Assembly: GCA_041639675.1 (NCBI GenBank)
Contig: JBEQBS010000001.1
Coordinates: forward strand, 1-61,654
Reading direction: 5' to 3'
DNA: 61,654 nt
Origin: Rubritepida sp.
GTDB lineage: Bacteria; Pseudomonadota; Alphaproteobacteria; Acetobacterales; Acetobacteraceae
Part shown: positions 28,820 through 50,600 of the stretch, piece by piece
Layout: each line of letters opens with the position of its first letter
Position numbering within the stretch: position 1 is the stretch's first letter
Position numbers and translations under genes: made by a program
The notes under the pieces: generated by a model
Databases searched by the model: none
What the model was told of the DNA's origin: nothing
The model's input: the letters and a program-made list of their open reading frames with translations, nothing else

Positions 28820-28838
28820 ACGAAGGGGACGGAAGCGC

Positions 28839-29405: not shown

Positions 29406-29426
29406 ACGGGCAAGCGAAGGAACTCG

Positions 29427-29823: not shown

Positions 29824-30798
29824 ATGCCGCAGCACAGATCCACCCGTCGCCAGGCCCTCGCCATCGGGCTCGGGCTGCCCCTGGGCGCCCAGGCGTCGGA
29901 AACTTGGCCCCAGCGCCCCATCCGGGTCATCGTCCCGTATCCGCCCGGGGGCCCGGCCGATATCATGGGACGCCTGGCTGCCCAGAAGATCGGCGAGCGG
30001 CTCAACGTCAACACCGTGGTGGAGAACCGCTCCGGAGCCAGCGGCACGGTGGGGGCGGAGGCGGTCCGGGCGGCGGCGCCGGACGGCCACATGCTCCTTG
30101 CGGCGCCGAGCGTGCATGTCATGGGCCGCCAGGTGCTGAGAAACGTCCCCTACGACCCCATCGGCGACTTCACGCCGGTCGCCCGGTATGGCCAGGGGCC
30201 GCTGCTGGTACTGGCCCATCCGTCGGTGCCCGGCAACACCATCGCCGAGGCGCTGCCCGCGCTGCGTGCCAGGCCCTCGAACTTCGCCTTCGGGCTCTCC
30301 GCATTCGGGGCCGCCAACCACCTGGCGGTTCTTGACTTCAACCGCCGGGCCGGACTGAACCTGCTGGTCGTTCCCTACCGCGGCTCGGCTCCCGCCCTGA
30401 CCGATCTCGTCGGTGGCCAGATCCAGCTCATGATCGATCCGATCATCGCGGCCCTGCCGCACGTTCGTGACGGCCGACTCAAGGCGCTGGCCGTCACGAG
30501 TTCACATCGCAGCCCCAGTGCTCCCGATGTTCCGACGGTGGCCGAGAGCGGCATGCCCGGTCTCGAGTTCGCGTCCTGGTATGGCGTATGGGGTCCGCGC
30601 GGCCTGCCGCCGGGAATCGCGCTGCGCGTGAACGAAGCCCTCAACGCGGGCATGCGCGAGCCCCAAGTCATCGAGCGACTCACGGCGATGGGTTTCGAGC
30701 CGGTGACGGAGAGCCCTGCCGAATTCGCCGCCTTCATCGAAAGCGATGTGCGTCGCAATGCCGAGCTCTTGCGCGAGGCACGCTTCCAGCCGGAGTGA
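29824..30798 (+). CDS. Bug/TctC substrate-binding protein
   Basis: TRRQAL leader, WPQRPIRVIVPYPPGGPAD, VENRSGA, PYRG, PDVPT. Confidence 0.93.
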   Translation: MPQHRSTRRQALAIGLGLPLGAQASETWPQRPIRVIVPYPPGGPADIMGRLAAQKIGERLNVNTVVENRSGASGTVGAEAVRAAAPDGHMLLAAPSVHVMGRQVLRNVPYDPIGDFTPVARYGQGPLLVLAHPSVPGNTIAEALPALRARPSNFAFGLSAFGAANHLAVLDFNRRAGLNLLVVPYRGSAPALTDLVGGQIQLMIDPIIAALPHVRDGRLKALAVTSSHRSPSAPDVPTVAESGMPGLEFASWYGVWGPRGLPPGIALRVNEALNAGMREPQVIERLTAMGFEPVTESPAEFAAFIESDVRRNAELLREARFQPE

Positions 30799-30831
30799 CG
30801 CCGCCCCGGCTGGTTGCGGCAGGCCACCCGC

Positions 30832-32271
30832 CTACAACGGTGCCTGGGTGACGAATTTCGTGACGAGATAGGGCTCGATGGCCTCCAATCCGCCTTCGGA
30901 CCCGTACCCGCTGTCCTTCACCCCGCCGAAAGGCACTTCGGGCAGCGCAATGCCAACATGGTTGATCGTCAGCATGCCCGCTTCGATCCGCGCGCCGAGG
31001 GCCTGCGCCGTGGTTGCGGCGCCCGTGAAAGCGTAGGCGGCGAGGCCGTAGGGCAGACGGTTGCTCTCGGCCACAGCCTCTTCCAGATTGGAGAACCGGT
31101 TCACGAGCGCCAGGGGGCCAAAGGGCTCCTCGTTCATCGCGCGGGCGGCAGGTGGCACCTCGGTCAGGATGGTGGGCTCGTGGAAGTAGCCCTTGTTGCC
31201 GATGCGGTTGCCGCCCGCCTGGAGCCTCGCACCGCGGCCGATGGCATCCTGCACGAGCGCTTCGATCGCCGGAACCCGCCGGTCATTGGCGAGAGGACCC
31301 ATCGTAACGCCGGGATCCATGCCGTTGCCGACGTTGAGCGCCTTCGCCGCCGCGGTGAAAGCCTCGACGAACTCGTCGAAGGAGCGCTCCTGGACGAGGA
31401 AGCGCGTCGGCGAGGCGCAGACCTGCCCGGCATTCCGGAACTTCGTGGCCGCAAGGATCCGCGCGGCCTTTCCGACATCCGCGTCGTCGAAGACGATGGC
31501 GGGCGCATGGCCGCCGAGTTCCATCGTCGCCCGTTTCATGTGCTGCCCCGCCATCGCGGCGAGCGTTTTCCCGACCGGCGTGGACCCCGTGAAGGTGATC
31601 TTCCGGATGACAGGGTGCGGGATGAGGTAGGACGAGATCTCGGCAGGCACCCCATAGACCAGACCGATCACGCCCGGGGGCAAGCCCGCATCCACGAAGC
31701 AGCGGACCAGTTCGGCGGGTGACGCGGGCGTCTCCTCCGGCGCCTTGACGATGATGGAGCAGCCCGTCGCCAGCGCCGCGCTGAGCTTTCGCACCACTTG
31801 GTTGATGGGGAAGTTCCACGGCGTGAAGGCCGCGACCGGCCCGACCGCCTCCTTCAAGACCAAGTTGTAGACACCCTCAGCCCGCGCCGGGATGACGCGC
31901 CCATACGCCCGACGGCCCTCCTCGGCCATCCAGTCGATGATGTCGCCAGCCGCCAGCACCTCCATCCGCGCCTCCCCGAGCGGCTTCCCTTGCTCCGCGG
32001 TTAGGATCGGAGCGATGGCGTCCGCTCGGGCCCGCAGGAGGTCGGCAGCCTTGCGCATGAGCTTGCAGCGGTCGAGGACGGACACCTTCCGCCAGGTCTC
32101 GAAGCCTTGCTGGGCTGCCTGGACTGCTTCGTCGAGATCAGTCCGGCCGGCGTGGGCGACGGTGCCGATGACCTCTTCCGTCGCGGGGTTGATGACCTCC
32201 AAGGTCCTGGCGGAGCGGGCGTCGCGCCATTCACCGTTGATGTGAAGCTGAACGTTTGGGTAGGCGCCCAT
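30832..32271 (-). CDS. NAD(P)-dependent aldehyde dehydrogenase (succinate-semialdehyde dehydrogenase-like)
   Basis: [36 protein letters not shown]. Confidence 0.94.
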
Positions 32272-32556
32272 CGGTGAAATCTCCATGGTTCTGTGTTGCG
32301 CGGGAAGGAACGGCGTCATCGCCCCAGCCTTGTCGGAATAGACGCCGGTCCCGCGGTCCATCTCGACGCGGCCACGCATCGGCTGCGCGGCACCGCAGCA
32401 GGCTGGGCAAGCGCTTCTCCGATCGCGGCTTCAGCGCCTCGACCACAGTCAACATCCTGTCGTTACGGCAGCACACCCGTCACGGGACGGGCGCCAAGCG
32501 AGTGGTCATCGGGCTTCGTTGGTCTCAATTCGTCGACACGCGCGACTAGACTTTCC

Positions 32557-32571
32557 GTTGACATTGTCAAT
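32557..32571. promoter_or_regulatory. Operator palindrome, copy 3
   Basis: GTTGACATTGTCAAT in the divergent ALDH/Bug gap. Confidence 0.7.
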
Positions 32572-32758
32572 CAAAAACGGAGGTGTCGTCGTCTCCTGCG
32601 TCCAGCTTCGTACTTGGAAAGGTGGGTAGGAGCGTGTTCAGCACCAATTGGCTCTCAGGACAACGACTGCGGCGCTTCCAAGCGCATAGGCCCCGGGGCC
32701 GAATGACCGGTCCGGGCAGACTCCCGCACGAGGGGCACCCTGGGCGGCGTGCGAGAAG

Positions 32759-32773
32759 GTTGATAACGTCAAC
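32759..32773. promoter_or_regulatory. Operator palindrome, copy 4
   Basis: GTTGATAACGTCAAC 30 bp upstream of the Bug gene at 32804. Confidence 0.7.
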
Positions 32774-32803
32774 CTCTGGTGCCCAGGAAGCCTGAGGAGC
32801 GAC

Positions 32804-33787
32804 ATGATCCGCCGTCACCTTCACTTCTTCCTGCTGGGCTGCGCCGGCCTGTCGGGATCGTTGCTTCTGGCCGCCGACGCCCGCGCCGAATTCCCAGACC
32901 GTGCCGTGCGGCTCGTCGTCCCCTTTGCGGCGGGCGGCGGAACCGACATTGTCGCGCGGCTCGTGGCGGCCCGAATGGCTGAGCGGCTCGGCCAGCCAGT
33001 CGTCGTGGACAACCGGGCCGGGGGCGGTGGCAGCGTCGGCTCCGATGCCGTGGCCAAGGCCCGGCCGGACGGCCACACGTTGTTGATGGCGACCGTTTCC
33101 ACCCATGCGATCAATCCCGCGCTGCAAAGCCGTCTGCCGTTCGATCCCATCCGTGACTTCGCCCCCGTGTCGCTTCTTGTCACGGTGCCCGGCGTAGCCG
33201 TAGTGGGTGCGAGCCAACCGTACCGGACCGCCGGCGATCTGGTGGCCGCAATGCGGAACAGGCCATGGAGCGTCTCCTACGGCTCGCAGGGCATCGGCGG
33301 CATTGGCCATCTCATGGGCGAGATGTTCGCCCGCGAAGCCGCCGGACAAGCCGTGCACGTACCGTATCGGGGCGCCGCTCCGGCGATGCAGGATCTTGTC
33401 GGCGGCAGGATCGACGTGGTCTTCGACACGCTGCCCGGCGTGGCATCCCAGATCCGCGCCGGCACGGCGCGCCCACTCGTCGTGGCCTCTCCCACCCGCC
33501 TTCCTGCCTTACCCGACGTGCCGACGGGGGCCGAGGCGGGCCTGCCGGGCTTCGTCGCAGCAACCTGGAACGCCCTCCTCGCCCCGGCTGGCACTCCGCC
33601 GGAGATCGTGCGGGTGCTGAACGCGGCGGCGGTGGACGCCCTCCGGGCACCTGGCATGCGTGAGCGCCTGACCGAGATGAGCGCCGAGGTTGTCGGCTCG
33701 ACGCCGGACGAGTTGGGGCGGTTCCTGCGTGAGGAACTGGCACGCTGGGGACCCATCGTCGAGGCAAGCGGCGCCCGACTGGACTAA
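32804..33787 (+). CDS. Bug/TctC substrate-binding protein
   Basis: FPDRAVRLVVPFAAGGGTD, DNRAG, PDGHTLL, HVPYRG, PDVPT. Confidence 0.93.
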   Translation: MIRRHLHFFLLGCAGLSGSLLLAADARAEFPDRAVRLVVPFAAGGGTDIVARLVAARMAERLGQPVVVDNRAGGGGSVGSDAVAKARPDGHTLLMATVSTHAINPALQSRLPFDPIRDFAPVSLLVTVPGVAVVGASQPYRTAGDLVAAMRNRPWSVSYGSQGIGGIGHLMGEMFAREAAGQAVHVPYRGAAPAMQDLVGGRIDVVFDTLPGVASQIRAGTARPLVVASPTRLPALPDVPTGAEAGLPGFVAATWNALLAPAGTPPEIVRVLNAAAVDALRAPGMRERLTEMSAEVVGSTPDELGRFLREELARWGPIVEASGARLD

Positions 33788-33950
33788 ATGCGCGGCAGGC
33801 GCCTCGCCCGTTCGGGTTGGGCGGGGTCGGCGGCCGTCAGGCCCCTGCCACATGTCCGCGCCCGAACGACCAGCACGTCGAGGAATTGACCATCACGCCT
33901 GGAATGGCCCTTGCGAAGATTGGACACCAGTCTGGAGCCGTCGGGCTGGC

Positions 33951-34730
33951 TCACTCGCTTGGCGCTCCAGCGAGCGCGGCTGTGATCTCACTCGCCGCCT
34001 CGACCACCAACTGACCGAAGTGTCGGGCTTGGGCCGCATCAATCCGTGCCTCAGGACCGAACACGCCCACCGATCCCGCAACCTGGTGACCGGCGCGAAA
34101 GAAAGGAGCTGCAATGGCGACCGCACCGCGAAACACCTCGCCGCGGCTGACCGCCACGCCTTCGTCCCTGCACCGCTGGAGGTCCTCCATGAGCTGAGAA
34201 CGATTCACTTCGGCGGGCAGCGACCGCAGCACCGCCGTCGCGGCCGCTTCATCGCTCATGATGTGGGCCAGGATGGCCTTGCCGCTCGCTCCCCGGCTGA
34301 TGTGCTCCGTCTCCCCGACGCCACGCGTGATGGTAAGGACCTGTCGGCTCGGCAGTTCCAGGAGGCAGAGCCGTTCGTCATCCTGAAGGACGAAGAGGGC
34401 CGCGGTCTCGCCCGTCACGTCACGGAGACGCTCCAGCACCGGCCGCGCCAGGGCCGCGACGTCCACGTCCGAAGCCCAGACATGCGCCAGGGACATCACG
34501 GCCGGCCCCAGCCCGAAACGTTGCGGCTCGCCGGATGCGTGCACGAGGCCGCTTGTGATGAGAGTCTGGAGGAGGCGGTACAGGGTTGGCCGGCTGATGC
34601 CGGTAAGCCGCTGGAGCTCCAGGACGGTCAGGCGGGGGCGCTCGCTCGTGAACGCCTTGAGGATCGAGACGGCACGCTGCACGGCACGGACGCTGTCCCC
34701 CTCCCCACCCTCCGCGTGATTGGTTGACAT
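33951..34730 (-). CDS. IclR-family regulator
   Basis: VRAVQRAVSIL, TGISRPTLYRLL, TGET, GASGKAIL, AIAAP; start may be 34757. Confidence 0.9.
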   Translation of the reverse strand: MSTNHAEGGEGDSVRAVQRAVSILKAFTSERPRLTVLELQRLTGISRPTLYRLLQTLITSGLVHASGEPQRFGLGPAVMSLAHVWASDVDVAALARPVLERLRDVTGETAALFVLQDDERLCLLELPSRQVLTITRGVGETEHISRGASGKAILAHIMSDEAAATAVLRSLPAEVNRSQLMEDLQRCRDEGVAVSRGEVFRGAVAIAAPFFRAGHQVAGSVGVFGPEARIDAAQARHFGQLVVEAASEITAALAGAPSE

Positions 34731-34737
34731 ACTCAAC
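34723..34737. promoter_or_regulatory. Operator palindrome, copy 5
   Basis: GTTGACATACTCAAC overlapping the IclR start region, upstream of the divergent ferredoxin gene. Confidence 0.55.
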
Positions 34738-34914
34738 TTGATTTTCTCCTCGACCATGGACAATATGGCCTTTGAGAATGCTGTTCGTCCACCGGACAGG
34801 AACGCGTTGGCGTTGGGTCCGGTCGAACGAAGCCCCTGCCCACCAACCGCACGGGGCCCGAGTTGTCCTGGCGGGTCCAGGCGCTGGATGCGTGACCATG
34901 AGGGAGAGACCAAG

Positions 34915-35238
34915 ATGCCTGAGGTGATCTATGTTGGCAGCGATGGGACCGAGCGAAGGGTGGACGTGCCCAAGGGACGTTCCGTCATGCAGGGTGCCAT
35001 CCAGAATGGCATCCGGGGCATCGAGGCCGAGTGTGGCGGCGTTCTTTCCTGTGCCACATGCCACGTGTACGTCGACCCTGCATGGGTGGATCGTCTGGAC
35101 CCGCCGAGCGAGGACGAGGCGGACATGCTGACGAACACCGCCGCCGAGCACGAGCCCGGCAGCCGCCTGAGCTGTCAGATCGAGGTGACCGCCGAATTGG
35201 AAGGGCTGGTGGTCCGCATCCCTGAGACGCAGTCGTGA
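34915..35238 (+). CDS. 2Fe-2S ferredoxin, putidaredoxin/adrenodoxin type
   Basis: ECGGVLSCATCHVYV...SRLSCQI; GGGAG RBS. Confidence 0.94.
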   Translation: MPEVIYVGSDGTERRVDVPKGRSVMQGAIQNGIRGIEAECGGVLSCATCHVYVDPAWVDRLDPPSEDEADMLTNTAAEHEPGSRLSCQIEVTAELEGLVVRIPETQS

Positions 35239-36470
35239 ACGAAGGGTTGGTGATCCTCGGCGCATCCTATGCTGGTGTGCAGATTGCCGTCAGTGCCCGC
35301 GAAAGCGGTTACGACGGCCCGATCACCATCATCGGCGACGAGGTGGAGCTGCCTTACCAACGTCCACCCCTGTCGAAGGGGTACCTCTCCGGCAAGGTGG
35401 ACGAGGCGGTCCTTCCGCTTCGGAGCGCGGCCTTCTTCGAAGAGCAGCGCATCGCGTTGCATCTCGGTGTTGCGGCCGCCGCAGTGGACCGGCGCGGCCG
35501 GACGGTCATGCTTGCCGACGGAACCGAACGCCGCTTCGGGCGTCTGGCCTTCGCGACGGGCAGCCGGGCCCGCATGCTGCCCCTGCCTGGCAATGACTTG
35601 GCCGGAGTGCATACCCTGCGCTCTCTCGCCGACGCGCGGCGTCTGGTCGCCGCGATGCGCTCTGCCGAACGGGCGGTGGTGATCGGTGGTGGTTACATCG
35701 GGCTCGAAGTCGCCTCGACCCTGGTTGCAGCCGGATGCGCCGTGACGGTGCTGGAGGCCTCGGACCGACTCCTATCCCGCGCGGCGGCCCCGCCACTCGC
35801 CGAGTTCGTGACCGACGTCCACCGCTCCCGTGGCGTGGAGATCGTCACCGGCGTGCAGGCCACCCGGATCCTCGGCGAGGACGGACGGGCCGTGGCGGTC
35901 GAGAGCACCGACCATGTGTCGCGTCCCGCCGATCTCGTCCTGGTGGCGGCGGGCGCGATCCCCAACGGGGAACTCGCCGTGGCGGCGGGCCTGGCCTGTG
36001 ACCAGACGGCCATCGTCGTTGACCGATGCGGTCGCACCAACGAACCCGAGATTCTGGCCGCGGGCGACTGCGCGGTGACCCGTCAGGGGGGCACGATCCT
36101 GCGCCTTGAATCCATCCAGAACGCGACCGACCAGGGGCGTGCTGCCGGCCGCGTCGTGGCCGGGCGGGAGGACGAGCACGCAGCGGTGCCTTGGTTCTGG
36201 TCGGACCAATACGACCTGAAGCTCCAGATGGCAGGCCTCGTCGCCGGCTACGACCGGCACGTCGTCCGCGGCCGCGTTGAGTCCGGGCGGTTCGGCATCT
36301 ACTACTTCCGGGAGGGTCGCCTCATCGCCGTGGACACGGTGAACAAGCCCGGCGACCACCTTACCGCGCGCAAGCTCGTGGCATCTGCAGACGGCGTCAC
36401 ACCGGAGGCAGTTGCTGATGAAAGCGTCGATCTGCGCGCTTTCCTGAAGGCGCACGCGAACGCATCGTAG
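35235..36470 (+). CDS. Ferredoxin reductase, GR/putidaredoxin-reductase type
   Basis: PYQRPPLSK, ATG, GGGYIGLE, AAGD, RLES.QNA, PWFWSDQY. Confidence 0.94.
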   Translation: MNEGLVILGASYAGVQIAVSARESGYDGPITIIGDEVELPYQRPPLSKGYLSGKVDEAVLPLRSAAFFEEQRIALHLGVAAAAVDRRGRTVMLADGTERRFGRLAFATGSRARMLPLPGNDLAGVHTLRSLADARRLVAAMRSAERAVVIGGGYIGLEVASTLVAAGCAVTVLEASDRLLSRAAAPPLAEFVTDVHRSRGVEIVTGVQATRILGEDGRAVAVESTDHVSRPADLVLVAAGAIPNGELAVAAGLACDQTAIVVDRCGRTNEPEILAAGDCAVTRQGGTILRLESIQNATDQGRAAGRVVAGREDEHAAVPWFWSDQYDLKLQMAGLVAGYDRHVVRGRVESGRFGIYYFREGRLIAVDTVNKPGDHLTARKLVASADGVTPEAVADESVDLRAFLKAHANAS

Positions 36471-37530: not shown

Positions 37531-40500
37531 ATGCCTGACGGCTTGCAGCAAGACGAAGGCGTTTCCACGCTCCTCGACGCGTCGCTCCGACGGACTGTTC
37601 TGCTGCAGGGCGGCGACGGGATGCCCGTGCCGCTCGGTTCGCTCCTCGACCGCCGCGCCGTCGTGCTCCTAGGCGATCCGGGTCTCGGCAAGAGCACCTG
37701 CATGGAGGCGGTGGCCAGGGCCGCAGGGGCGCCACTTCGAACAGTGCGCGGATTTCTTGCTGCCCGCGCGGGCGACGTGGGCGCGCCCGGCACGACCCTG
37801 CTCGACGGCCTCGACGAAACCATGGCGCTTTCGGCGGATCGGACCGTGGTGGACGAGGTCGTCGCCCGGCTTTCTGCGGCAGGGTGGCCGGCGTTCTGGC
37901 TGTCGTGCCGACCCGCCGACTGGGCGCGCGCCGACGGGCGCGCGCTGCTGGCGGAGTGCGCGCCGGGCGGCATCGCTGTCGCCCATCTCCTGCCGCTCTC
38001 GGACGACGAGATCGAGGCGGCTGTCGCCGGCGCCGGCCTCGACCCGCCCGCAGTGCTTCGGGCGATGGAGGCGGTCGGGCTCCTCCCGCTGCTCGGCAAC
38101 CCGCAGACGCTGCGGCTCGTCACTGAGGTGTTCGCGGACGGCGGGTCACCCACCTCGCGCACCGACCTCTACCGGAGAGCCACCGAGCACCTCGCGCGTG
38201 AGAGCAACCGCCTGCACGCGAGCGCCGCCGCGCGTCCGTCCGATGCCGAACTCCTTGAGGCCGGTGGCGCCGCCGCGGCGGTCCTGCTGCTTTCGGGCCG
38301 GGTGGCCCTCGCGCCCCGGGGTGCCGAGATCGAGGGCGCGGTCCCGATTGGGACAATGGACCGGCTGGCGCCAGCGGCCCACCTCGAAGCTGCCCTGCAG
38401 AGCCGCCTGTTCGCCGCCACACCTGGCGGCGGGTGGGTTCCTGCGCACCGCACCGTGGCGGAGTTCCTCGCCGCGGCCTGGATGGCGCGCCGGGTCGAGC
38501 TCGGCAGCGAGCCCCTCGGCCGAACCCTCGCGCTGATCTGCGGCGGGGCCGGCGCGCCCGACCCGTCGCTCGGCGGGCTCTTCGCGTGGCTGGCCGCCCT
38601 GCTGCCCGACGACGCGGAACGCTTTGTCGGGCGCGACCCGTACACCGTGGTCGCCTACGGCGACGTGGCGGCGCTCCGGCCGGGCGCGCGGCACGCGCTG
38701 CTGGCGGGGCTGCGGGATCTGTCGGAGTCGGAGCCGTTCTTCCGGGCCGGGCGGTGGGGTGAGGCGCGGCTCGGCGCGCTCGCCGTCCCTGAGCTGGCCG
38801 ACGGGCTGAGGCAGATCATCGCCACGCGCCCCGTGCGCTTCCACCTGCTGAGCTGCGCGCTGGAGGCGGTGGAGCACGGGGCCCCCCTGCCGGACCTGAC
38901 CGAAGACCTCGCCGCGCTGATCTTCGACGCCAGCCTGGACACCGAGGTCCGCACGCTGGCGATCAGCACGTTCGCCAACGTAGCGCCTGCGGAACGCCTG
39001 CGCACCGCGTTCTTTGCCCTCCTCGCTGACAACACGGTGGACCCCGGAGCAAACCTCGCGGGCACAATGCTGCTCAAGCTGTACCCCACCGTTCTCGGCG
39101 AAGACGAGGTCGAGGCGTTCCTGCTCCGGTTCGTCGCCACCGACACCGGGCAGGGGGACCGGCTTCACGTTGAGCACCGGCTGCCCAAGCGGGTGCCGGC
39201 TGTCCACGCCGCGGGGCTGCTTGACCGCCTCGCCCGCCACGCCTGGCCGGCCGACGCCCCGCACCCGCTGTCACGGGCCCATGAGGTCCGCGAGCTGGCG
39301 CGACGCTTGGCCGCGCGCGCGATTCCGACGGCGCCCCCAACGCGCGCCGTCTCGTGGCTTGCGCTGCTCGCCGGCGACGGGACCGGCGGGGCGAATCACC
39401 GTGAGCTGCGCGAAGCCTTTGCCTCCCGTCCGGACCTCTACGTCCCGCTCCTGGCCGCAGTGGCATCGCTTTCGGTGCGCGACGGTGCGCCGCTGCCGCC
39501 CTCCATGGCGCCCTGGCGGGCGAGGCAGATGCTGCCGTGGTGCGAGCCGCCTCCGGACGCCGCGGCGAGGCTGGTGGCGGCCGTGGAGGCAGACCCCGAT
39601 GCGGAGGAAGCCTTGGCCTTGTACGCCTCCGCGCTCGTGCTGCTCCTGCACGACGGGGGCATCGGCTGCGAGGATATTTTCGAGCGCTGCCACGCGGCGG
39701 CAGGACTGCGGCTGGAGTTCGAGCGCGAGCGCGAGAAATTCGCTGTGTGTCCGCTGGGCGAGCAGGAGGAGTGGAGGCGAGAGGAGCGGCGCCGGCGCGA
39801 GGAGCAGGCGCGGAACGACGTCGAGACGCGTCAGCGCAGCGATGGCTGGCTCGCGGAACGGGCTGCCTCCATCGCGGACGGATCGGAGGAGCACGGCCTC
39901 GAGTGGCTCGCGCAGGGCTGGTTCGGGCGCATCCACGCGCCTGGTGACGCAGAGCCGCCGCGCGATCCGGTGGACCGGCTGGCACGCCTCGTTCAGCCAG
40001 AGGTGACTAGGGCGGCAATGTCAGGCTTCCGGGCGTATGCCGAACGCGGGCCGCTGCCCACGCCAGGGGAGCTCGCTGCGAGGGCGGGCGGAGTCTCTAT
40101 TCCCGCTGTGGGGCTCGCGGCGCTCGCCGGCGCCGACCTTCTCGCCGTCGAGCGGGGCGACGCTGCCCTTGCCGGCCTTCCCCCGGAGCGCCGCGTAGCG
40201 CTGCTGTGCCTCGGGCTCGTGCACGCCACGCAGACGACGGTGGACCGCACCGTCCACCGGGACCGCCGGCCGTGGATGGGCGCCGTCGCCGACGCCCTGC
40301 CGGACGAGAGCGCGGCCGCAGTTCGGGCCTTGCTGTTGCCGCAGCTCGCGGCGGGCGCGGCGTTCCTCGACGGATGGGACCAGCTGCAGGGCGACCCCGC
40401 CCTGCGGCGCTTGCTCCGCGACGTCCTGCCGGATCTCCTTGCGGCGGTTCCCGCCGCCGGGTCCGCGCTGGATCCGATCTGGCGGACGGCCCTCGTCGAG

Positions 40501-41697
40501 TGCCCGCTCCCCGTCCTCGGCTCGCTCGTCGGGGCGCGTCTTGCCCGCGCCTCGTCGCCGGCGGATCGCTGGCCGTGGCTCGTCTTCTGCTGGCGGATAG
40601 CCCCGGCAGACCATGAGGCAGAGCTTCTTGCGGCCGCGCGAGCGGACGACGAGCGGCTGCACGCACTGATGCAGGACGTGGGCGAGAACTTCGACCCCGG
40701 CGGGCCTCCCCTGACGGCGCGGCACCGGGAAGTCCTGATCCGCCTGACCGGGCCGCGCTTCCCGCCCGCGCCGGCGCCCCCTGGGTCGTGGAGCAGGCCC
40801 ACGCCTTACGATCGCGCGTGCTTCGTGCATCGGCACATCGCCGCTCTCGGCGACACTGGAGGCGCGGAGGCGGGCGCCGGCCTGAACAGGCTGCTCTCCG
40901 ATCCGTCGCTCGCCGCCCACGCCGACCATCTGCGGAACGCCATCGCCGCTTGGCGTCGGAGGGCGAGGCTCGCGGCCCGGGCTGCGCCGTCAATCTCCGA
41001 CCTGGTGCGCGCGCTTTCCGGTGGGCCGCCCGCCACCAAGGCCGAGCTACACGCCTTCGTGGTGGCGCACCTTCAAGACCTGCGCCGCGAGGTCCGGTCT
41101 GCGGCTGAGGATGCATGGCGCGCGTTTTGGAACGTTGATGCGAAGCGCGGCCCAACCGAGGGGCGGCCGGAGGAAGACTGTCGCGACGCCATCGTTCGGC
41201 TTCTTGCCGCCCGGCTCGAGCGTGCCGGGCTGGCGCAGGAGACGGAGGCCCGGCGAGTCGCCCGGACGCGCTGCGACATCGTGGTCGGGCACATCGCCGC
41301 GCGCGTGCCCGTCGAGGTGAAGTGCGACTGGAACGGTGAACTCTGGACCGCGTGGCGCGAGCAGCTGGACAACCAGTACTGCACCCACCCCGAAGCGGGT
41401 GGTTTCGGCGTGTACCTCGTGGTCTGGTTCGGGGCACGGCGGGGTAGGTCCCGGCGCGTCCCAGCGCCGTCGGCGGGAGCGGCCCCGGCGAGCGCCGAAG
41501 AATGCCAGAGGATGCTCGACGCAGCCATTGAAGAGGACGCCGGGCGGCTGGTGACGGTGGTGCTCGACGTCAGCCCGATCTCCTCGGTTGGGCTCCGTGC
41601 CGGCGGCGGCCCGGTACGTGGCGGTAGCAAAACTTCACCGCCGCCACGAGCCCGGAAGCTGAAGACGAGCGGTGCGAAAAGCGCCGGCAAAACATGA
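37531..41697 (+). CDS. NACHT/STAND-like NTPase with long helical region and C-terminal PD-(D/E)xK nuclease (NLR-like defence candidate)
   Basis: Walker A LLGDPGLGKST, Walker B TLLDGLDE, LSCR, GNP.L, HRTVAEFLAA; C-terminal EEDCRD..RCDIVV..VPVEVK..QL..QY..GVYLVVWFG. Confidence 0.8.
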   Translation: MPDGLQQDEGVSTLLDASLRRTVLLQGGDGMPVPLGSLLDRRAVVLLGDPGLGKSTCMEAVARAAGAPLRTVRGFLAARAGDVGAPGTTLLDGLDETMALSADRTVVDEVVARLSAAGWPAFWLSCRPADWARADGRALLAECAPGGIAVAHLLPLSDDEIEAAVAGAGLDPPAVLRAMEAVGLLPLLGNPQTLRLVTEVFADGGSPTSRTDLYRRATEHLARESNRLHASAAARPSDAELLEAGGAAAAVLLLSGRVALAPRGAEIEGAVPIGTMDRLAPAAHLEAALQSRLFAATPGGGWVPAHRTVAEFLAAAWMARRVELGSEPLGRTLALICGGAGAPDPSLGGLFAWLAALLPDDAERFVGRDPYTVVAYGDVAALRPGARHALLAGLRDLSESEPFFRAGRWGEARLGALAVPELADGLRQIIATRPVRFHLLSCALEAVEHGAPLPDLTEDLAALIFDASLDTEVRTLAISTFANVAPAERLRTAFFALLADNTVDPGANLAGTMLLKLYPTVLGEDEVEAFLLRFVATDTGQGDRLHVEHRLPKRVPAVHAAGLLDRLARHAWPADAPHPLSRAHEVRELARRLAARAIPTAPPTRAVSWLALLAGDGTGGANHRELREAFASRPDLYVPLLAAVASLSVRDGAPLPPSMAPWRARQMLPWCEPPPDAAARLVAAVEADPDAEEALALYASALVLLLHDGGIGCEDIFERCHAAAGLRLEFEREREKFAVCPLGEQEEWRREERRRREEQARNDVETRQRSDGWLAERAASIADGSEEHGLEWLAQGWFGRIHAPGDAEPPRDPVDRLARLVQPEVTRAAMSGFRAYAERGPLPTPGELAARAGGVSIPAVGLAALAGADLLAVERGDAALAGLPPERRVALLCLGLVHATQTTVDRTVHRDRRPWMGAVADALPDESAAAVRALLLPQLAAGAAFLDGWDQLQGDPALRRLLRDVLPDLLAAVPAAGSALDPIWRTALVECPLPVLGSLVGARLARASSPADRWPWLVFCWRIAPADHEAELLAAARADDERLHALMQDVGENFDPGGPPLTARHREVLIRLTGPRFPPAPAPPGSWSRPTPYDRACFVHRHIAALGDTGGAEAGAGLNRLLSDPSLAAHADHLRNAIAAWRRRARLAARAAPSISDLVRALSGGPPATKAELHAFVVAHLQDLRREVRSAAEDAWRAFWNVDAKRGPTEGRPEEDCRDAIVRLLAARLERAGLAQETEARRVARTRCDIVVGHIAARVPVEVKCDWNGELWTAWREQLDNQYCTHPEAGGFGVYLVVWFGARRGRSRRVPAPSAGAAPASAEECQRMLDAAIEEDAGRLVTVVLDVSPISSVGLRAGGGPVRGGSKTSPPPRARKLKTSGAKSAGKT

Positions 41698-41699: not shown

Positions 41700-42045
41700 G
41701 GCGCAGGCGAACCTGTCCTTGCAGGTGGCGACCAAGCGCTACGAGCGCGGAGCGATGATCCTCACCTCGAACCTGACCTTCGGCAGCTGGGACCAAGCCT
41801 TCGCAGGCGAGACGGTGCTGATGGGGGCCATGCTCAACCGGCTGCTGCACCACACCAACTTGGTGCAGATCAGCAGCGGGAGCTTCTGCCTCAAAGACAA
41901 GCGCCGGGCAGGCGTGATGGCGAAGAGGGAGGGCCGCAGAGCGGCGCCGCCCGGGTTGGGGCTCGCCCCGCCCCGGGCATCATGCGGGTCGGATTTCAAT
42001 CGGCAACCCCGCGCAAGGCGGGTCAGAAGTCAACCGGCGTTGACA
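41700..42045 (+). mobile_element. istB: IS21-family right-end remnant (3' istB + terminal repeats)
   Basis: KRYERGAMILTSNLTFGSWDQAF..AMLNRLLHH..SFCLKDKRRAG; then GGGTCGGATTTCAATCGGC and GGGTCAGAAGTCAACCGGCGTTGACA (repeated end motif terminating in CA). Confidence 0.85.
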
Positions 42046-42164
42046 CCATCTGCAGTCAGGCCTCGTAGCGGCCTCATCGAAGTGCCTTCCTGCAGCCATG
42101 TGGACCCCGCTACGCCGTAAAGAGAGCCTATAGTGGACGCTATCAAGGACCCAGCAGGACTGCA

Positions 42165-43811
42165 TCACGCGGCACCGCGAACGAGATCAATCAACGCTTG
42201 CGGATCGGCCGGCAACTCGTTCCCACGCCAAGCCACGTGCTGGTCAGGACGGGAGAGGACAAGGCGCTCCCCATACCAGGGCGATGCCTCTGCGTCATCG
42301 AGGTCGAGCACCCTGAGCGGCACGCCACGCCCTTCGGCCGCGCGAACGAGCGGCGCGACATCCAGCGATGCGTCCGTGCGCAGCAGGCTGAAGCCTGGAC
42401 CTAGGCGATCGTAGAGCGAGCGCCCCTCGCCATCCCAAACATGCGGTGTGCGGCAACCAGGAACGGTCGAGGGCGTGAAGGCAGCCATGCTATAAGGAGG
42501 CGGCGCTTCGCCGTCGTAGGCGATGATGGGGGATCGGTCGTAGAAGTAGCCGAAGTTCAAGCCGCCGCAGCAGTATTGGTTCACGTTCAGATCGTAGGCC
42601 TCCTGGCCAAGACGACGGCGGGCCGCCGCGCCTTCGGGTCCGGGCGCCTCGATGTCCTCAGACACGCCACTGCGCTGGTTGGCAAGGGCGATGGAATGGT
42701 TCATCGCGAATCGCGAGACTTGGTCCGTTATCGGCAGGCGTTCGGCCTCGTAGGCATTGAGGATGGCGGGCTCTGCCCAACCCGACAGTACGCCCGCCAG
42801 GAGCCAGGAAAGGTTCGTGGCGTCGGCAATGCCGGCATTCATGCCGTAGCCGGCCATCGGCACCCAGATGTGGGATGCATCCCCGCAGATGAAGACTCGC
42901 CGGTCGCGAAACCGGTCCGCGACCAGACGGCGACCGATCCAGTCCTCCCTGCTGATGATCTCGTATTGGAAGTCGTCACCGACCCCGAGGATCTGGCGGA
43001 TGGAGCGGTCGCGGCTGACCGACTCGAAATTCTCTTCGTCCGGCCGCAGGTAGTTGTGGATGAGCCAGGTCTCGATGCCGTCTATCGCATACATGTTGCC
43101 GCTGCGGCGGGGGTTCAGAGAGAAGGTCGCCCAGGCACGGCGCCCGCCCATGCGTTCCAGGAGGTCCGGTGCGCGAATGAAGGTGGATTGGACGCGCTGC
43201 ACCACCGGGTCACCCTGGAATGTCGCGCCGATCGCCTTGCGGGTGGGCGAGGCACCGCCGTCGCAGCCAACAAGGTAGCCGCACGCGATTTCGAGGGGTT
43301 CGCCGCCGTCCAGCCGCTCAGCCCATACGCGCACGCCGGCGTCCGACTGTTCGAAGCCGGTCACGCGCACGCGATTGAGGATGCGCAGGTTCGGCATGGC
43401 CTGCGCGTGACGGAAAAGGATGGGCTCCAGGTAGATTTGGTTGATGCGATGCGGAGGCTCCGGAGTAGGCCAGTGCGTGTCCGGTCCGTTCCTCGACGTA
43501 TAGCGGTCGCGCCGGCAAGGAATGGGGATGCGCGACAATTCCTCACCGGTCGCGGTGATGCGATACGAGATGTCGTTCGGGAAGTCCTCCGGCAAGCCTG
43601 CGTCGCGCAGAGCCGCGGCAACGCCGAGGCGGCGGAAGATTTCCATGGATCGCGCCGAGACGTGATTGCATTTCACATTCGGAGGTTCGCCCTCGGCCCG
43701 CATTTCCGCGACGGTGACATCAACGCCCCGCCACGCGAGGTCCATCGCGAGGGTCAGCCCGACTGGCCCAGCTCCGATGATCAGCACGCTCGTGCCAATG
43801 CGCTCGATCAT
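42165..43811 (-). CDS. FAD-dependent monooxygenase (PheA/TfdB-like aromatic hydroxylase family)
   Basis: GAGPVG, GCDG, RVFICGDASH, GMNAGIADA.NL.W, YEAER, PG.R.PH, RPDQHVAW. Confidence 0.93.
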   Translation of the reverse strand: MIERIGTSVLIIGAGPVGLTLAMDLAWRGVDVTVAEMRAEGEPPNVKCNHVSARSMEIFRRLGVAAALRDAGLPEDFPNDISYRITATGEELSRIPIPCRRDRYTSRNGPDTHWPTPEPPHRINQIYLEPILFRHAQAMPNLRILNRVRVTGFEQSDAGVRVWAERLDGGEPLEIACGYLVGCDGGASPTRKAIGATFQGDPVVQRVQSTFIRAPDLLERMGGRRAWATFSLNPRRSGNMYAIDGIETWLIHNYLRPDEENFESVSRDRSIRQILGVGDDFQYEIISREDWIGRRLVADRFRDRRVFICGDASHIWVPMAGYGMNAGIADATNLSWLLAGVLSGWAEPAILNAYEAERLPITDQVSRFAMNHSIALANQRSGVSEDIEAPGPEGAAARRRLGQEAYDLNVNQYCCGGLNFGYFYDRSPIIAYDGEAPPPYSMAAFTPSTVPGCRTPHVWDGEGRSLYDRLGPGFSLLRTDASLDVAPLVRAAEGRGVPLRVLDLDDAEASPWYGERLVLSRPDQHVAWRGNELPADPQALIDLVRGAA

Positions 43812-43912
43812 GTTGACCTTCCTCCCATCCTCAGCGCTGCGACGATTTTCACATTGTAAGGGCTTTGTCCTTAAAGGATTAGCGGATAATACTCGTCATT
43901 TATCGAGGAAAA

Positions 43913-44806
43913 ATGATGAATGCGACCCTCAGGCAGCTTGAGGCTTTCTCCCTCTGTTCCCGGCAGGGAAGCCTGACCGCTGCTGCCGGGCGCATGGGGC
44001 TGACGCCATCGGCCGTGAGCCTGCTCCTCCGCCAATTGGAGGAAGAGATTGGCCTGCGGCTGCTGGACCGTACCACACGGCGCCTCCAGCTGACCGAAGC
44101 AGGGCGTGAGGCTCTCGATGGCGCCGAACGCATTCTGGCGGAACGCAATCGGCTTGCCACCCGCATGAAAGGGCTCGTCTCGTGCCAGGGTGGGCAACTT
44201 GCCGTGGCGGCATCCGCCGCCATCGCCGCGGTGCTGGTTCCGAAGATGCTGCAAGCCTTCAACAGGCAGCATCCGGGCCTCCGCCTGATCCTCCACGACG
44301 TGCCGCCGGACGGAGTCGTGTCCAGCGTCGAGAACGGCATGGCCGAGATTGGTCTCGGGACGGTGGGCGAACTCACGGACGGATTGCGCGCCGAAACCCT
44401 GCTGAGCGATCAGGTCAGCGCCATCTGCAGGCCCGACACGCACTTGGCGGGCCGGCGTCGGCTCACCTGGGAGGAAGTGATGGTCGAGCCTTGTATCTGC
44501 GTCGCACGAGGCAACCCGATCCGCACGCTGATTGATGACACCCTCGCGACCCAGGGGCGCATCTTGCATCCGAAGTGGGAGGTCTCCTTCTTTGCGACGG
44601 CGCTCTCACTGACCGTTGCCGGCTTCGGCGTCGCTCTTCTCCCGAGCTACCTCGTGGGGCAGGAGCCGCTCTCCGGCCTGATCGCCATTCCGCTTGAAGA
44701 ACCTCGGATTCAGCGGGATGTCGCATTGGTGTTGCCGGCAGGCCGAACCCTCTCGCCGGCCGCTACGGCGTTCATTGCTGTGGCGCGGCGCAGCATCGCG
44801 CGCTGA
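43913..44806 (+). CDS. LysR-family regulator
   Basis: TLRQLEAF..SLTAAA..LTPSAVS..LEEEIG.RLLDRTTR.L.LT.AG; divergent from the monooxygenase. Confidence 0.94.
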   Translation: MMNATLRQLEAFSLCSRQGSLTAAAGRMGLTPSAVSLLLRQLEEEIGLRLLDRTTRRLQLTEAGREALDGAERILAERNRLATRMKGLVSCQGGQLAVAASAAIAAVLVPKMLQAFNRQHPGLRLILHDVPPDGVVSSVENGMAEIGLGTVGELTDGLRAETLLSDQVSAICRPDTHLAGRRRLTWEEVMVEPCICVARGNPIRTLIDDTLATQGRILHPKWEVSFFATALSLTVAGFGVALLPSYLVGQEPLSGLIAIPLEEPRIQRDVALVLPAGRTLSPAATAFIAVARRSIAR

Positions 44807-44902: not shown

Positions 44903-45751
44903 GGCTCAGGACTCATTGTCCCAGCCAAAAGGTGACGGTGGCGGCGAGGGTGATGGCTGCGAAGAAGGCGTGGGCGCAGCGGTCGTAGCGCATGGCGATG
45001 CGGCGCCAGTCCTTGAGGCGGCCGAACATGATCTCGATGCGGTGTCGCTGGCGGTAGAGCGTGGCGTCATGGGGGATGAGGCGCTTGCGCGAACGCGTTG
45101 AGGGGATGCACGGGGTGATGCCGCGGGCTTGCAGCTCTGCGCGGAAACGGTCGCTGTCGTAGCCGCGGTCGCCGATCAGCTCGCGGGCTGGCGGCAGGCG
45201 TGGGAGCATGATGGCGGCGCCTCGGTGGTCGCTGGCCTGTCCTTCGGTGAGCAGCAGGACCACGGGCCGCCCCTGGCCGTCGCAGGCGGCGTGGAGCTTG
45301 GAGTTCAGCCCGCCCTTGGTTCGGCCGAGCAGGCGGGGAAAAGCCCCTTTTTGAGCAGGCTGGCGGCTGTGCGGTGCGCCTTGAGGTGGGTGCTGTCGAC
45401 CATGATGCGCTCGGGCGGCCCGCCCTCGGCGGCGAGGGCTGCGAAGATGCGATCGAACACGCCCATGCGGCTCCAGCGGATGAAGCGGTTGTAGAGGGTC
45501 TTGTGGGGTCCGTAGGCCGCAGGCGCGTCGCGCCACTGCAAGCCATGGCGGATGACATAGACGATGCCACTGAGCACGCGGCGGTCATCCACGCGCGGAA
45601 TGCCGTGGGAGAGTGGGAAGTGCGGCGAGAGCCTGCGCATCTGCGCGGGCGAGAGCAGGAAGGGCGGCTTGGGACTGGGCCTGGGGGACCTCCGCCATGC
45701 CCAGAATCACAGCCCGCCGAAGCCGCGCAAGCGATTAATGGGTCCTGAGCC
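44903..45751 (-). mobile_element. IS5-family element (two-ORF, frameshifting type), about 850 bp
   Basis: Terminal IRs GGCTCAGGACTCATT / GGCTCAGGACCCATT; CTAG at both ends (44900-44903, 45751-45754; TA or CTAG duplication); slippery AAAAAGGGG at 45344-45352. Confidence 0.93.
44913..45640 (-). CDS. IS5-family transposase (OrfA + OrfB joined by -1 frameshift)
   Basis: OrfA PRVDDRRVLSGI..WRDAP..YGP.KT.YNRF.RW..VDST; OrfB GRTKGG.NSKLH..GDRGYD..YRQRHRIE.MFGRLKDWRR. Confidence 0.9.
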
Positions 45752-45823: not shown

Positions 45824-47617
45824 TTACTGCGGCCCAGCCTCCCCGGTTGTTCCCAGCTCTGGGAAGACGGCGGCCAACTGGGCTAGCATCAGGCGCGCGA
45901 TTCCCGGCGACCGGATGTGGACGCCGACCTCCCCGGCCGGAAAGGTGTCGTCGGTTGAAGCGGAGGCCCAATTCAAGCTGGTGACGACCACGTCGTCGTC
46001 GTCCCAAAGCACAAACTTTCCGTGCAGCGGCACCTTGCTGGTCTGGATAAGCCGCACACCATTCTTCGCGGCGTCCTCAGCCAGTTCCCGGGCGTGGCGC
46101 CTCTTCAGCGGGCCGCTGGGTTGGGCGTAGAGAATGGCCACGTTCACGCCACCCCGGCCCGCGGCCACCTCACCGGGCAGGATTGCGCCAGTCCGCGCCG
46201 TTGAGCCAAGCCGGTTGCTGCCGACGACGAGGGTGCGGGCCACTGTGCCACTTGCGACCCGCATCAGCGCCTCGTGAGCCCCACCGTCCAGAATGGTCAC
46301 GGCAGAGGTCCCGCGCGGTGGCGGCAGGCCGGCGCCGCTTCGGAGGTCTCGAGCGGTGAGGTAGAGCTCCGAAGCAAGATCGCCGGAGAGGCCGCTGGAG
46401 GCGATCATACCCTGCAGGGTAAGCATTGCGTCTGCCACGGTGAGTGGGGCACGCAGGACGGCCGTGACCTCTACCGGTTGGAATTTAGAGGACAGCCAGT
46501 TGCAGGAGCTGACTGCGGCGATCCAACCCCCATCACCATCGTCCGCCAATAGCAACTTGGCATGGGAGCCCGTCACGCGCATGCGGATTCGGATCCCCGC
46601 GCACAGTGTCGGATCGGCTTGAATGCGGTCGGCGATGATCCGGGCGGCACGGGCGTTTCTGCCATCCTTGTCGGTCTCTGACCCCACGCCCCATAGCAGA
46701 TCTATTCTCACACCGCGGGCAGCGGCCGCGCGCAATGGTTCCTCAAGTTCCGCGAAGCGGTCCGCGTCTAGAAAGGTGGAGTGGAGGAGCACTCGGTGCG
46801 TCGCCTTCGCCAACACATCCAGCAGGAGCGAGCGCTGGCGACTGCCACCGACTATGAGGTCCTCGGCGTCAAACGCACATGGGACCGCGGCGCGGCCCGG
46901 CCCGTCGATCCGCCTGGGTCCGGTCGGGCGGACGCGGGGTCGGACCTCTCGGGGCGTAGCAGCGACCTGCGCGACGATGGCACGTAGCTGCTGGCTGGCC
47001 ACCTCTGGCAGGTTGCGCGCCGTGCCGTCGACGACTTGGACGCGCATGAGGCTGTCGTCCTCGATGACGGTCTCGCGCCCGAGCACGCGCAGTAGCCTAC
47101 GCTCGCCCCGGTTCTCCAGGAGGTCCACGAGCCTCGAAAGGCTGGCCTCGTGCGCCTCCGTGCCCTCGTCCACTTCGAGGATGCGGACGTCGGCGTTCGC
47201 GTTGCGCTCGCGCTCAAGGTCGACCCGGCGAGAGAGTCGTACCTCGCGGGAGAGAAATGCCTCGCCCGAGTAACGCTCAATGACGAAGTTGAATCGCTGC
47301 GTGACCTCGCGGGGCAGCCGCGGCAGCGGTCGCCCAGTTCGCACCAACTCGGCTCCCGCGACGCTCGCGATGAAAGCGGCCGCGTCCCGATCTGGCCGGA
47401 CCTCGACGAACCTGAATCGCATCAGGCGGGCAAGAGAGGCTGCAACAACCTGGAGCGGGAGGCCAGAATCCCGGGAGAGCGCGGCGAGCGTGCCCCCAGA
47501 CCCGCCGAGCGTAAGGGCAAGCAGCAGGGCCTCGTCGATGACGCTCCAGTCCCAACCGTAGTCCATCACGGCCCGCCCCCGGATCCGGCGCACGGGGATG
47601 CCGACGATTATGCTCAC
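45824..47617 (-). CDS. mkoB: PLD-family protein with two HKD motifs and N-terminal wHTH-like region (Mokosh type I MkoB-like)
   Basis: SHAKLLLAD..SSCNW and LHGKFVLWD..TSLNW; GTG overlaps the helicase stop. Confidence 0.8.
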   Translation of the reverse strand: MSIIVGIPVRRIRGRAVMDYGWDWSVIDEALLLALTLGGSGGTLAALSRDSGLPLQVVAASLARLMRFRFVEVRPDRDAAAFIASVAGAELVRTGRPLPRLPREVTQRFNFVIERYSGEAFLSREVRLSRRVDLERERNANADVRILEVDEGTEAHEASLSRLVDLLENRGERRLLRVLGRETVIEDDSLMRVQVVDGTARNLPEVASQQLRAIVAQVAATPREVRPRVRPTGPRRIDGPGRAAVPCAFDAEDLIVGGSRQRSLLLDVLAKATHRVLLHSTFLDADRFAELEEPLRAAAARGVRIDLLWGVGSETDKDGRNARAARIIADRIQADPTLCAGIRIRMRVTGSHAKLLLADDGDGGWIAAVSSCNWLSSKFQPVEVTAVLRAPLTVADAMLTLQGMIASSGLSGDLASELYLTARDLRSGAGLPPPRGTSAVTILDGGAHEALMRVASGTVARTLVVGSNRLGSTARTGAILPGEVAAGRGGVNVAILYAQPSGPLKRRHARELAEDAAKNGVRLIQTSKVPLHGKFVLWDDDDVVVTSLNWASASTDDTFPAGEVGVHIRSPGIARLMLAQLAAVFPELGTTGEAGPQ

Positions 47618-50600
47618 GAAGCTGCTCCCAGGAGACCCACAGGCAGCACAGCGGCGAGAGGGGTCCCGTCGGGTGCCCGCCGGCGAGCCAAATCGTCGAT
47701 CGTATCGAGGGCCTTCGTGATGAAGCCGAGATCGTGGCCGTCGTCGCGGCCAGGGTTCACGCCTCGCACGGCCTCCCGGAGAAACGCCAGGCTCCCGACA
47801 AGTACAAGACGGGAACGGGCGCGGCTGAGCAGAACGTTCATCCGACGCGGATCCGACAGGAACCCGAGCCCAGAGCGCCCTGTGCGAGGGTTGTTGCGGA
47901 CGAGAGAGATCACGACGAGATCCGCCTCGCTGCCCTGAAACGAGTCTGTGGTGCAGACAAAGCCGAGGCCGGGCCGGGCAGGGTCGAACGCGTCCAGCCC
48001 GGCGGTCCGAGCGGCACGGAGCCTTGCGTCGAGGCGGGCGACCTGTGCACGGTAAGGAGAGAGGACCGCCAAGGTCGGGCGCCTCGTCGTCCCCGTTCTC
48101 GGCCGGGCTAAGCGAAGCACGTCCATGACGGCTTCCACCTCCCGCGGATTGCACCAGGCCGGTCGCTCTTCGAAGTGCTCGGCTCGTCCAGTCTGGCTCA
48201 CGTGTTCGAAGTCAACAACGATGACAGGGCTGGCAGTGAGGGGAGCGTCGAACTCGACGGTGGGGGAGCAGGCGTACGCCTCTCGCTCCCGTTCCAGCAC
48301 GGTGCGGAGTTCGCCGCCGTAGAAGGCGTTCGAGACGATCTCGGCCACGGCAGGGTGCATCCGCCGCTGCTCCGTCAGCGTGGCCGCAATCCGGCGGCCA
48401 GTCGGGTTCACGCGGCCTCGCCTTTCGTCATCCTCCGCATAAGCCCGAAAGGGCTGGATCAACCGCAAGGCCCCGGCGGCAAGCCGTTGAAGCGTGTCGC
48501 TGTCCTCAGCCGCCCGCCGCAACTCCGCGAGCTCACCGCCAGCGAATAATGCGCCGACCTGCTCTTCTGCCAGAGATAGGACCTGCGCGAGGAGGCGATG
48601 GTCGGCGAGGATGCGCTCCAAGCGTTGGGAGTCGAATGGCGGGAGCTGCCGGTGGTCGCCGATAAGGAGGCGTCGCCCAGCCAACGCGAGTACACCCGTC
48701 AGCTCGGGCCCACTCACCTTTGCGGCTTCCTCGACGGCGACCATATCGAATCGAGACCGCTCCTGCACAAGGCGTTCAACGACAGATGAGTTCGTTGTGG
48801 AAACCACGACGTTCGCTGCGTCGAGGAGAAGGTCTGTTGCCGCCCAGACCGCCTTGCGCTGCGCGCTCGTCTGGCCACCGGGACCTGTTGCGGACAATGC
48901 ATTGAGTCTGTCGCGGAAGGAGGGCGGCGCTCGCTCAACCATCGCGCTTCGGGAGAGCGCGGCCAGCATGTCCGCGGCCTTTGCAGCGAGGTCGGCGGCG
49001 GTCGGTGACCGGTTTTCGGACTGGGTACGCACGAGCAACGCGCCGGCCGGGAGCGCCTTGGCGACCTCTTCCTGAAGGTTGTCCAACGCGTCATGCCCCT
49101 GTGCCGTCAAGAGCAGGCGGGCACCGGGCTCAGCCGCGAACCGGCGCCGCACAACCTCGCGAGCGAGGCGCGTTTTGCCCACGCCTGGGGGTCCCACAAC
49201 GAGAAAGAGGGGAAGCGTCGAGGTCAGCCCCTGCAGCGCACGTTGCTTCGGCGCGTCCAACTCTCGGAATTCGTTGTCCTCAGTGACGGTTTCCCGCGAG
49301 CTCCGCCGCACGAGGTAGGGGTCGGCGAGCATGTCCGCCAAGCCGGGCTGGTCAGCGAGTGCGGCGATGTTACGCAGTCTGCGGCGGATTACGCGTTCCG
49401 TACCCTGATCATCGCCGGGCCGCAGGAAAAGCTTCCCCCCGACCGGGACTTCCCCGTCGAGCTCGAACCGATAGACAGGTATGCCGTCGACTCGGCCAAG
49501 GCCGATGAAGGTGAGGGCCGCATCGTTCCGCCGGTCCCCGAGCGACGGGGATGGACCAAGGAACCACGCTCCCTCGCCCTCGCGGTCATCTTCCTCGAAT
49601 AACCGCCTGAGGGTGGCTGCTGCGGTGCCGAGGCCGACCTTCCTCGCAATCTCGTCACGTTCACCGGCAACCGCCCCAAGCTCGACCACCCTGCGCCCGC
49701 GCTCTGTGCTCAGGCCGGCAACCGCTACTGGCAGGGCTTCAAAGGAGCGGACGAACGCTTCTACAACCTGGATGAGGTTCAGCGCCCGGCGGACATCGCC
49801 TCGAACCCTCGCCTCCGGCTCGGCCTCCTCGGCGCCCGCGAAAGCGCCCCAGTCCAGGGCCGCGGGCCCGAGTCGTGCGCGAAATTCCCTGGCCTGGGAA
49901 TGGGTAGCGACGATCCGGACCTCTTGCGCTATCTCGTGGGCCGTGCCCCACCCACCGCGCGGGTTGTCATCGTCGCGAAGCGTAGCGGATTCGCAGAAGG
50001 CGATGTCCCACGACGCCTCACCGCCCTGCTCGCGAAAAGGCCGCAGGGAGTACGTCATTAGCTCGGTGACGAGGAAGAGGCGCTCGGGCTGACTGCCCGC
50101 CCGCGTCGGCACGAAGAGGGTGGCACCGGACGCCAAGTCCGCGGCGGCCCACGAGTGCTGCTCCCGGACTTCATCCTCTGCGATATCGCCGTTGGTTGCC
50201 CGCGCGACCGAGCGGCCCAGGCCACTCGCCTCCGTGATGAGCAAGGCGAGAACTCCGGTCCTCGCGAGGCCGGTGCGGCCAAGTTCCGCCACGATGGCGT
50301 CGATGGAATTCAGGACCGACCCGGCGTCGGCGCGGTCTGACTGCGTTGGCGAGCCAAGGCGGCGCAGCAACAACGCCTCAGCGGGCGACAGCTCCGGCGC
50401 CCCGGCGCCGCCCGCGCCCCCTGTCGGTGCGGCATCGAGGATGGCCGCGGCGAAGGCGCCGAACGCGCGCCAGTCTGCGGCGAACGAGTAGGCCTCTGGC
50501 CTCGGCGCCGAAGGACCAAGCGCAGGCTGTGAGGGCGTCCCCGTCGGGGCGGCGAACCAGAGGCTCCACTCGAAGCCGCCCAACTGAAAATCTGGTTCCT

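Follow-up and report, generated by a model that had tools for sequence, protein, structure and literature searches.

Erebus was reportedly named by van den Berg et al. in Cell Host Microbe in 2024. Together with Hypnos and bNACHT64 it makes up the Avs10 family (Lee et al., bioRxiv 10.64898/2026.01.04.697583; Nature 2026, PMC13581612). According to the latter source, Avs10 senses the HK97-fold major capsid protein of phages, the A-domain of which is bound in structure predictions, and mutation or deletion of the effector abolishes cell death. The source data of that paper give the effector mutant of the tested member, EhAvs10, as E1263A-K1265A: survival with the Pal001, HdK1 and Skarpretter capsids ranges between 0.0005 and 0.015 for the wild-type protein and between 0.57 and 1.16 for the mutant. 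In most other families of the same table the rescuing mutations lie at residues 47 to 98, Avs10 being the only one there with such a mutation near the C-terminus. Kibby et al. (bioRxiv 10.1101/2022.07.19.500537) place the effectors of some bacterial NACHT proteins at the extreme C-terminus and predict that a toroidal sensor folds them back beside the nucleoside triphosphatase (NTPase). A 2026 preprint (10.64898/2026.03.27.714766) terms the Erebus mechanism "currently unclear". Here we describe P0001, a gene found in 61,654 nucleotides of Rubritepida sp. DNA (assembly GCA_041639675.1, contig JBEQBS010000001.1, positions 1 to 61,654; hereafter the window). P0001 probably encodes a single-gene Erebus/Avs10-type NACHT sensor of capsid protein that kills the infected cell via a C-terminal nuclease.

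The P0001 reading frame opens with an ATG at 37531 and runs for 1388 codons uninterrupted by a stop. An alternative in-frame TTG at 37513 would add six residues and is directly preceded by an in-frame stop. The product matches the NCBIfam EruA model (NF058535, "NACHT domain-containing antiphage protein") with an expect value (E) of 2.5e-258 and a score of 860.8 bits. The match is unbroken, residues 37 to 1348 pairing with positions 20 to 1318 of the 1318-position model (1299/1318 positions). The second-best model, Hypnos HyoA (NF058534; E 1.2e-32, 112.7 bits), is homologous in the NTPase and the proximal sensor but is longer (1430 positions), and P0001 stays under its equivalog cut-off of 1200; some other family members match HyoA to near their C-terminus. 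All 17 members of a family alignment (A1) are recognized by the EruA profile, and two of the 17, weakly, by Pfam NACHT. Pfam and PADLOC 2.0 returned only weak P-loop matches; the Erebus-like family is absent from the copies of these collections used and present in NCBIfam. EruA and P0001 thus share a single-gene organization, full-length collinearity, an N-terminal NTPase with no effector ahead of it and the same C-terminal domain. They differ in that P0001 belongs to a separate subclade, which is marked by the motif EVKC(D/E)W rather than E(I/L)KRxxH, and ends in a 40-residue basic tail. Because its score lies under the EruA equivalog cut-off of 1000 bits, the protein is filed, on its sequence, as Erebus-like within Avs10 rather than as EruA proper.

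The NTPase starts close to the N-terminus. Walker A (GDPGLGKS) places the lysine at residue 54, in agreement with the original prediction, made from the DNA letters alone, of a P-loop some 50 residues from the N-terminus that leaves no room for an N-terminal effector. Walker B (DGLDE) fits the NACHT signature D[GAS]hDE (Kibby et al., 10.1101/2022.07.19.500537) and puts P0001 in the NACHT clade. Homologues were compared in an alignment of 149 rows, comprising 147 of 166 proteins (those of at least 1200 amino acids) and two Pantoea plasmid homologues. Here the Walker A lysine has a median position of 44 and is preceded by 80 or more residues in just two rows, while D92, D95, E96 and H306 are invariant (Table 1). 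Residues 191 to 330, approximately, probably correspond to the helical and winged-helix section within the STAND module, with names and boundaries that follow general STAND anatomy. A lost or frameshifted N-terminal effector was considered and ruled out: neither of the two open reading frames in the 1 kb upstream of P0001 has a Pfam match, and homologues begin alike. Together with the in-frame stop near the start, the lack of Pfam matches upstream argues against a split-off effector. Single-sequence folding of residues 1 to 1200 yielded an all-helical middle at a predicted local distance difference test (pLDDT) value of 43, and this model was kept out of fold searches. The long helical middle that had been proposed is upheld as predicted helices; the charged coiled coil placed within it is not, since EEWRREERRRREEQAR lies in a helix (residues 743 to 782) seen in this low-confidence model only.

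The C-terminal domain contains E1214-D-C-R-D, D1249 and P-V-E1262-V-K1264, the motifs from which a terminal nuclease-like domain had been proposed at the outset. E1214 is conserved in 148 rows, D1249 and E1262 in 147 each and K1264 in 145. Residues 1 to 1200, the query that retrieved most rows, do not include these four positions, so that their conservation was not selected by the query. A model of residues 1150 to 1350, built from a 55-sequence input, reached a pLDDT of 92.7 and a predicted template modelling score of 0.89. Against 48,161 solved chains, its best structural matches were Can2 (Z 8.7, root-mean-square deviation 3.0, 114 aligned residues) and BamHI (Z 8.0, deviation 4.5, 147 aligned), followed by OkrAI and BstYI (both Z 7.9) and BglII (Z 7.7). 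Nucleases fill the top 30 rows, all of which, the enzymes just listed included, presumably share the PD-(D/E)xK fold; the first Rab GTPase appears at rank 31 (Z 5.7). Given the consistency of this list and the conserved acidic and lysine residues, the domain is predicted to be a PD-(D/E)xK-like nuclease, which the confident model resembles. Its Atlas label is DUF8371/PF28130, with DUF8371 clusters scoring 0.92-0.95. No relative turned up when the PDB was searched by sequence.

Altogether, P0001 combines full-length homology to the NTPase and sensor of the named Avs10 members, as judged with the EruA and HyoA profiles, with a C-terminal E-x-K (E1262/K1264) in a nuclease-like fold. Avs10 as described in PMC13581612 has the same STAND NTPase and helical sensor. 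The E1262/K1264 pair would be the counterpart of EhAvs10 E1263/K1265, a correspondence drawn only from position, spacing and the two Enterobacterales (Pantoea) homologues, in which the equivalent glutamate is residue 1258. Beyond the nuclease, tails of at least 20 residues occur in 19 of the 149 members, many of them rich in lysine and arginine (up to 55%); that of P0067 may resemble an H-NS DNA-binding motif. Basic tails may aid DNA binding by the nuclease.

Table 1. Coordinates of P0001, its parts and neighbouring features in the window
Feature	Position	Strand	Remarks
Erebus/Avs10-type gene P0001	37531..41697	+	1388 amino acids; NF058535 E 2.5e-258, residues 37-1348
Walker A GDPGLGKS, residues 48-55, K54	37672..37695	+	K in 147/149 rows
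Walker B DGLDE, residues 92-96, NACHT-type signature	37804..37818	+	D92, D95, E96 each in 149/149 rows
Putative helical and winged-helix part of STAND module, residues ~191-330	38101..38520	+	P191 in 148/149, H306 in 149/149 rows
Helical sensor region, residues ~331-1149	38521..40977	+	All-helical in low-confidence model
Charged helix EEWRREERRRREEQAR, residues 746-761	39766..39813	+	Within predicted helix 743-782, low confidence
Predicted C-terminal PD-(D/E)xK-like nuclease domain, residues ~1150-1350 (DUF8371/PF28130)	40978..41580	+	E1214, D1249, E1262, K1264; model and structural matches
Low-complexity basic tail, 40 residues	41575..41694	+	Tail of at least 20 residues in 19/149 rows
Tailed members: window; P0046, P0056, P0067, P0130, P0132, P0153	41575-41694 (window)		Many of the tails K/R-rich
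IstB (IS21) C-terminal remnant	41719-42120	+	22 bases downstream of P0001
IS5-type transposase, two overlapping frames	44913-45640	-
Mokosh pair: MkoA (kinase-like and helicase), MkoB (phospholipase D-like)	45824-51168	-	Profile matches, E 1e-227 and E 9e-84
Flanking aromatic and acyl-CoA catabolism genes	26584-36470, 42165-44806, 51357-59659

The described Avs proteins suggest how P0001 might act. In the resting state, the NACHT module would carry ADP and adopt a closed form, as in Avs7 (PMC13581612). The helical middle would grip a newly made monomer of phage major capsid protein, binding would lead to oligomerization via the NTPase, and the C-terminal nuclease domains, brought together in this way, would cleave DNA, their predicted substrate; the infected cell would thus be stopped or killed ahead of phage spread. 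Autoinhibition and oligomerization are carried over by analogy from Avs7, Avs13 and Avs20 of PMC13581612, and the scheme presumes that the gene is expressed and that capsid protein would also be the trigger in the divergent subclade to which P0001 belongs. Avs3, Avs7, Avs8 and bNACHT25 are likewise STAND proteins with trigger-induced nuclease activation but, unlike P0001, have N-terminal effectors and different sensors. The tested Avs10 member comes from another host ("Eh"; preference was given to Enterobacteriaceae), whereas P0001 is known here from its sequence and models. A DNA search with a Pantoea homologue gave no match in Escherichia coli, and no Enterobacter-named protein occurs among the 120 proteins of the matches listed.

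The family is large. Searched with residues 1 to 1200 of P0001, clusters formed at 50% identity numbered 2762 at E 0.001 or better and 1045 at 1e-30. Relatives were located in at least 56 genome loci spread over many phyla, in 27 plasmid records and in one phage record. Judging by the aligned sequences, the layout with the NTPase first and the nuclease at the C-terminus is common to the whole family. In a tree of 65 rows (FastTree, midpoint root, compositional bias flagged), P0001 is part of a distinct 12-row clade with a Shimodaira-Hasegawa (SH) support of 100 and a stem of 0.77 changes per column. Members of this subclade carry the EVKC(D/E)W motif noted above. P0001 belongs to a divergent, stand-alone subclade of the family, for which the capsid trigger is extrapolated.

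Full-length matches were found in one of the 31 other same-genus genomes and in one of five other genera of the Acetobacteraceae, a patchy distribution of the kind that a mobile defence gene should show. The same-genus genome G020 (contig C9, L012:1162-3048, minus strand) has a 628-amino-acid in-frame version alongside its full-length copy. In this version the NTPase and the proximal helices are preserved, but most of the sensor is missing, along with the first half of the nuclease; it is probably a deletion remnant. In the window's own genome, G000, one end of contig C119 bears a fragment of another, divergent member of the family (L013:2-541, minus strand), with one TAG within the match. The Pantoea plasmid homologues (L073 and L074) adjoin genes for Ppl or TrlF-family anti-phage ATPases, and the first is also accompanied by an Abi gene and an integrase.

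Several observations weigh against P0001 being a capsid-triggered, nuclease-armed Avs10 protein. Its EruA score falls short of the cut-off, and its clade is separate from the one with L033, L037 and L047, which pass. The distal sensor (residues 621 to 1150), the most variable stretch of the protein, is only about 20% identical to that of other family members. Even EhAvs10 responds strongly (survival below 0.01) in just 5 of the 23 rows that the data for Fig. 5a of PMC13581612 give for capsid or capsid-like proteins, and specificity is therefore narrow and variable. The window's own genome contains a P22-coat-like capsid gene, evidently tolerated. As to the nuclease, Z values of 7 to 8.7 are middling by the comparison tool's own note, and Foldseek returned nothing at E 0.001 or better for the domain model (best Can1, E 3.5e-3). 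Finally, no sigma-70-like promoter consensus was found upstream of the gene.

The P22-coat-like gene lies on contig C164 of G000 (L076:1354-2520, plus strand; E 7e-10) and adjoins a scaffold-like gene. Its product might act as a natural trigger, or it might escape detection. Among 32 genomes of the host genus, capsid profile PF11651 matched in two, and PF09950 and PF20911 in none, the controls for these being silent too.

The divergence of the sensor raises the possibility that P0001 is of the same family and has the same C-terminal nuclease but that its subclade has switched trigger, the new one being some other phage protein or a sign of host damage. We consider such a switch unlikely. The long, fully supported stem, the sub-threshold EruA score and the drop in identity of the distal sensor from 0.37 inside the subclade to 0.20 outside it all speak for the switch; outside the subclade, identity is 0.29 over residues 331 to 620 and about 0.35 in the NTPase and the nuclease. 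However, the P0001 sensor is collinear with that of EruA without a break, and cross-reactivity between Avs families is reported to be low, each responding to targets that are homologous to one another (Lee et al., 10.64898/2026.01.04.697583). Moreover, scores below the EruA cut-off are common in the family: of eight full-length proteins, three pass (1000 to 1139 bits) and five fail (772 to 986), and both Pantoea homologues fall at 772 to 776 bits. It is doubtful that the stand-alone subclade (12 rows, EVKC(D/E)W, often basic-tailed) would be an Avs10 offshoot re-tuned to a different phage protein.

Capsid sensing by P0001 would also be moot if the gene were intact yet inactive or crippled, being either unexpressed or in need of a partner. 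Of the 56 related genome loci among the matches listed, 39 carry a gene for an AAA_14/DUF4143 ATPase directly upstream on the same strand. This partner, of about 425 amino acids, has its own D..EVK motif (among L017-L072; e.g., L031:4619-5941 and L042:2844-4163). Neither a six-frame translation of the window nor genome G000, which is 93% complete, yields a match to AAA_14/DUF4143; P0001 is therefore not part of a two-gene module of DUF4143 ATPase and Erebus-like protein. A literature search on this pairing showed nothing relevant among the papers listed. The missing partner, the insertion sequence (IS) remnant abutting P0001, the internally deleted copy in G020 and the failure to find a promoter consensus would all fit a defunct gene. 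We nevertheless regard this as improbable: the catalytic residues are all intact across a 4.2-kb open frame, and the partner is limited to another clade, all 34 partner-bearing loci in the tree falling within one clade of 39 rows. Neither the subclade members with genomic context (L003 and L004) nor L033 and L037, which pass the EruA cut-off, have a partner, and E. coli was the host in which EhAvs10, as a STAND protein, was cloned and assayed (Lee et al., 10.64898/2026.01.04.697583). That P0001 is an ATP-dependent nuclease attacking incoming plasmid or phage DNA directly, with no protein-triggered suicide, as the restriction-enzyme-like fold of the model and the basic tails of P0001 and other members might suggest, is highly improbable, given that EhAvs10 kills upon capsid co-expression alone (PMC13581612 source data) and that the NTPase signature is of the NACHT type and not that of a helicase or translocase.

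P0001 is set among aromatic-catabolism genes (Table 1). The flanking genes specify Rieske dioxygenase subunits, ferredoxin and its reductase, a flavin adenine dinucleotide-dependent monooxygenase, a LysR regulator, a coenzyme A (CoA)-transferase and enoyl-CoA hydratases. A Mokosh pair lies 4 kb downstream. With its scarcity in the genus, the 27 plasmid records of the family and the IS elements and Mokosh genes nearby, P0001 is a patchy, mobile gene.

In conclusion, the homology with EruA and Avs10 supports the proposal of a single-gene, NLR-like defence protein with the predicted order NTPase, sensor and C-terminal nuclease. The inverted architecture put forward in the original prediction is real; it is not undescribed, as EruA is a full-length homologue, the C-terminal E-x-K of EhAvs10 has already been mutated and Kibby et al. 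report effectors at this end. Since P0001 matches EruA over nearly its full length and Avs10, which includes Erebus, has been characterized (PMC13581612), a new system is rejected. The Erebus/Avs10 family already has a name and an NCBIfam model, and the experiments on it extend to the C-terminal catalytic motif. What may still interest specialists is how oligomerization of the NTPase would activate a nuclease 1100 residues away: the main text of PMC13581612 contains no occurrence of "C-terminal effector" or "C-terminal nuclease", and the search for a solved relative found none. P0001 is one of more than 1000 equally suitable candidates for probing the folding back of the effector. If its subclade were re-tuned, this would represent trigger switching within one NLR family with a C-terminal effector.

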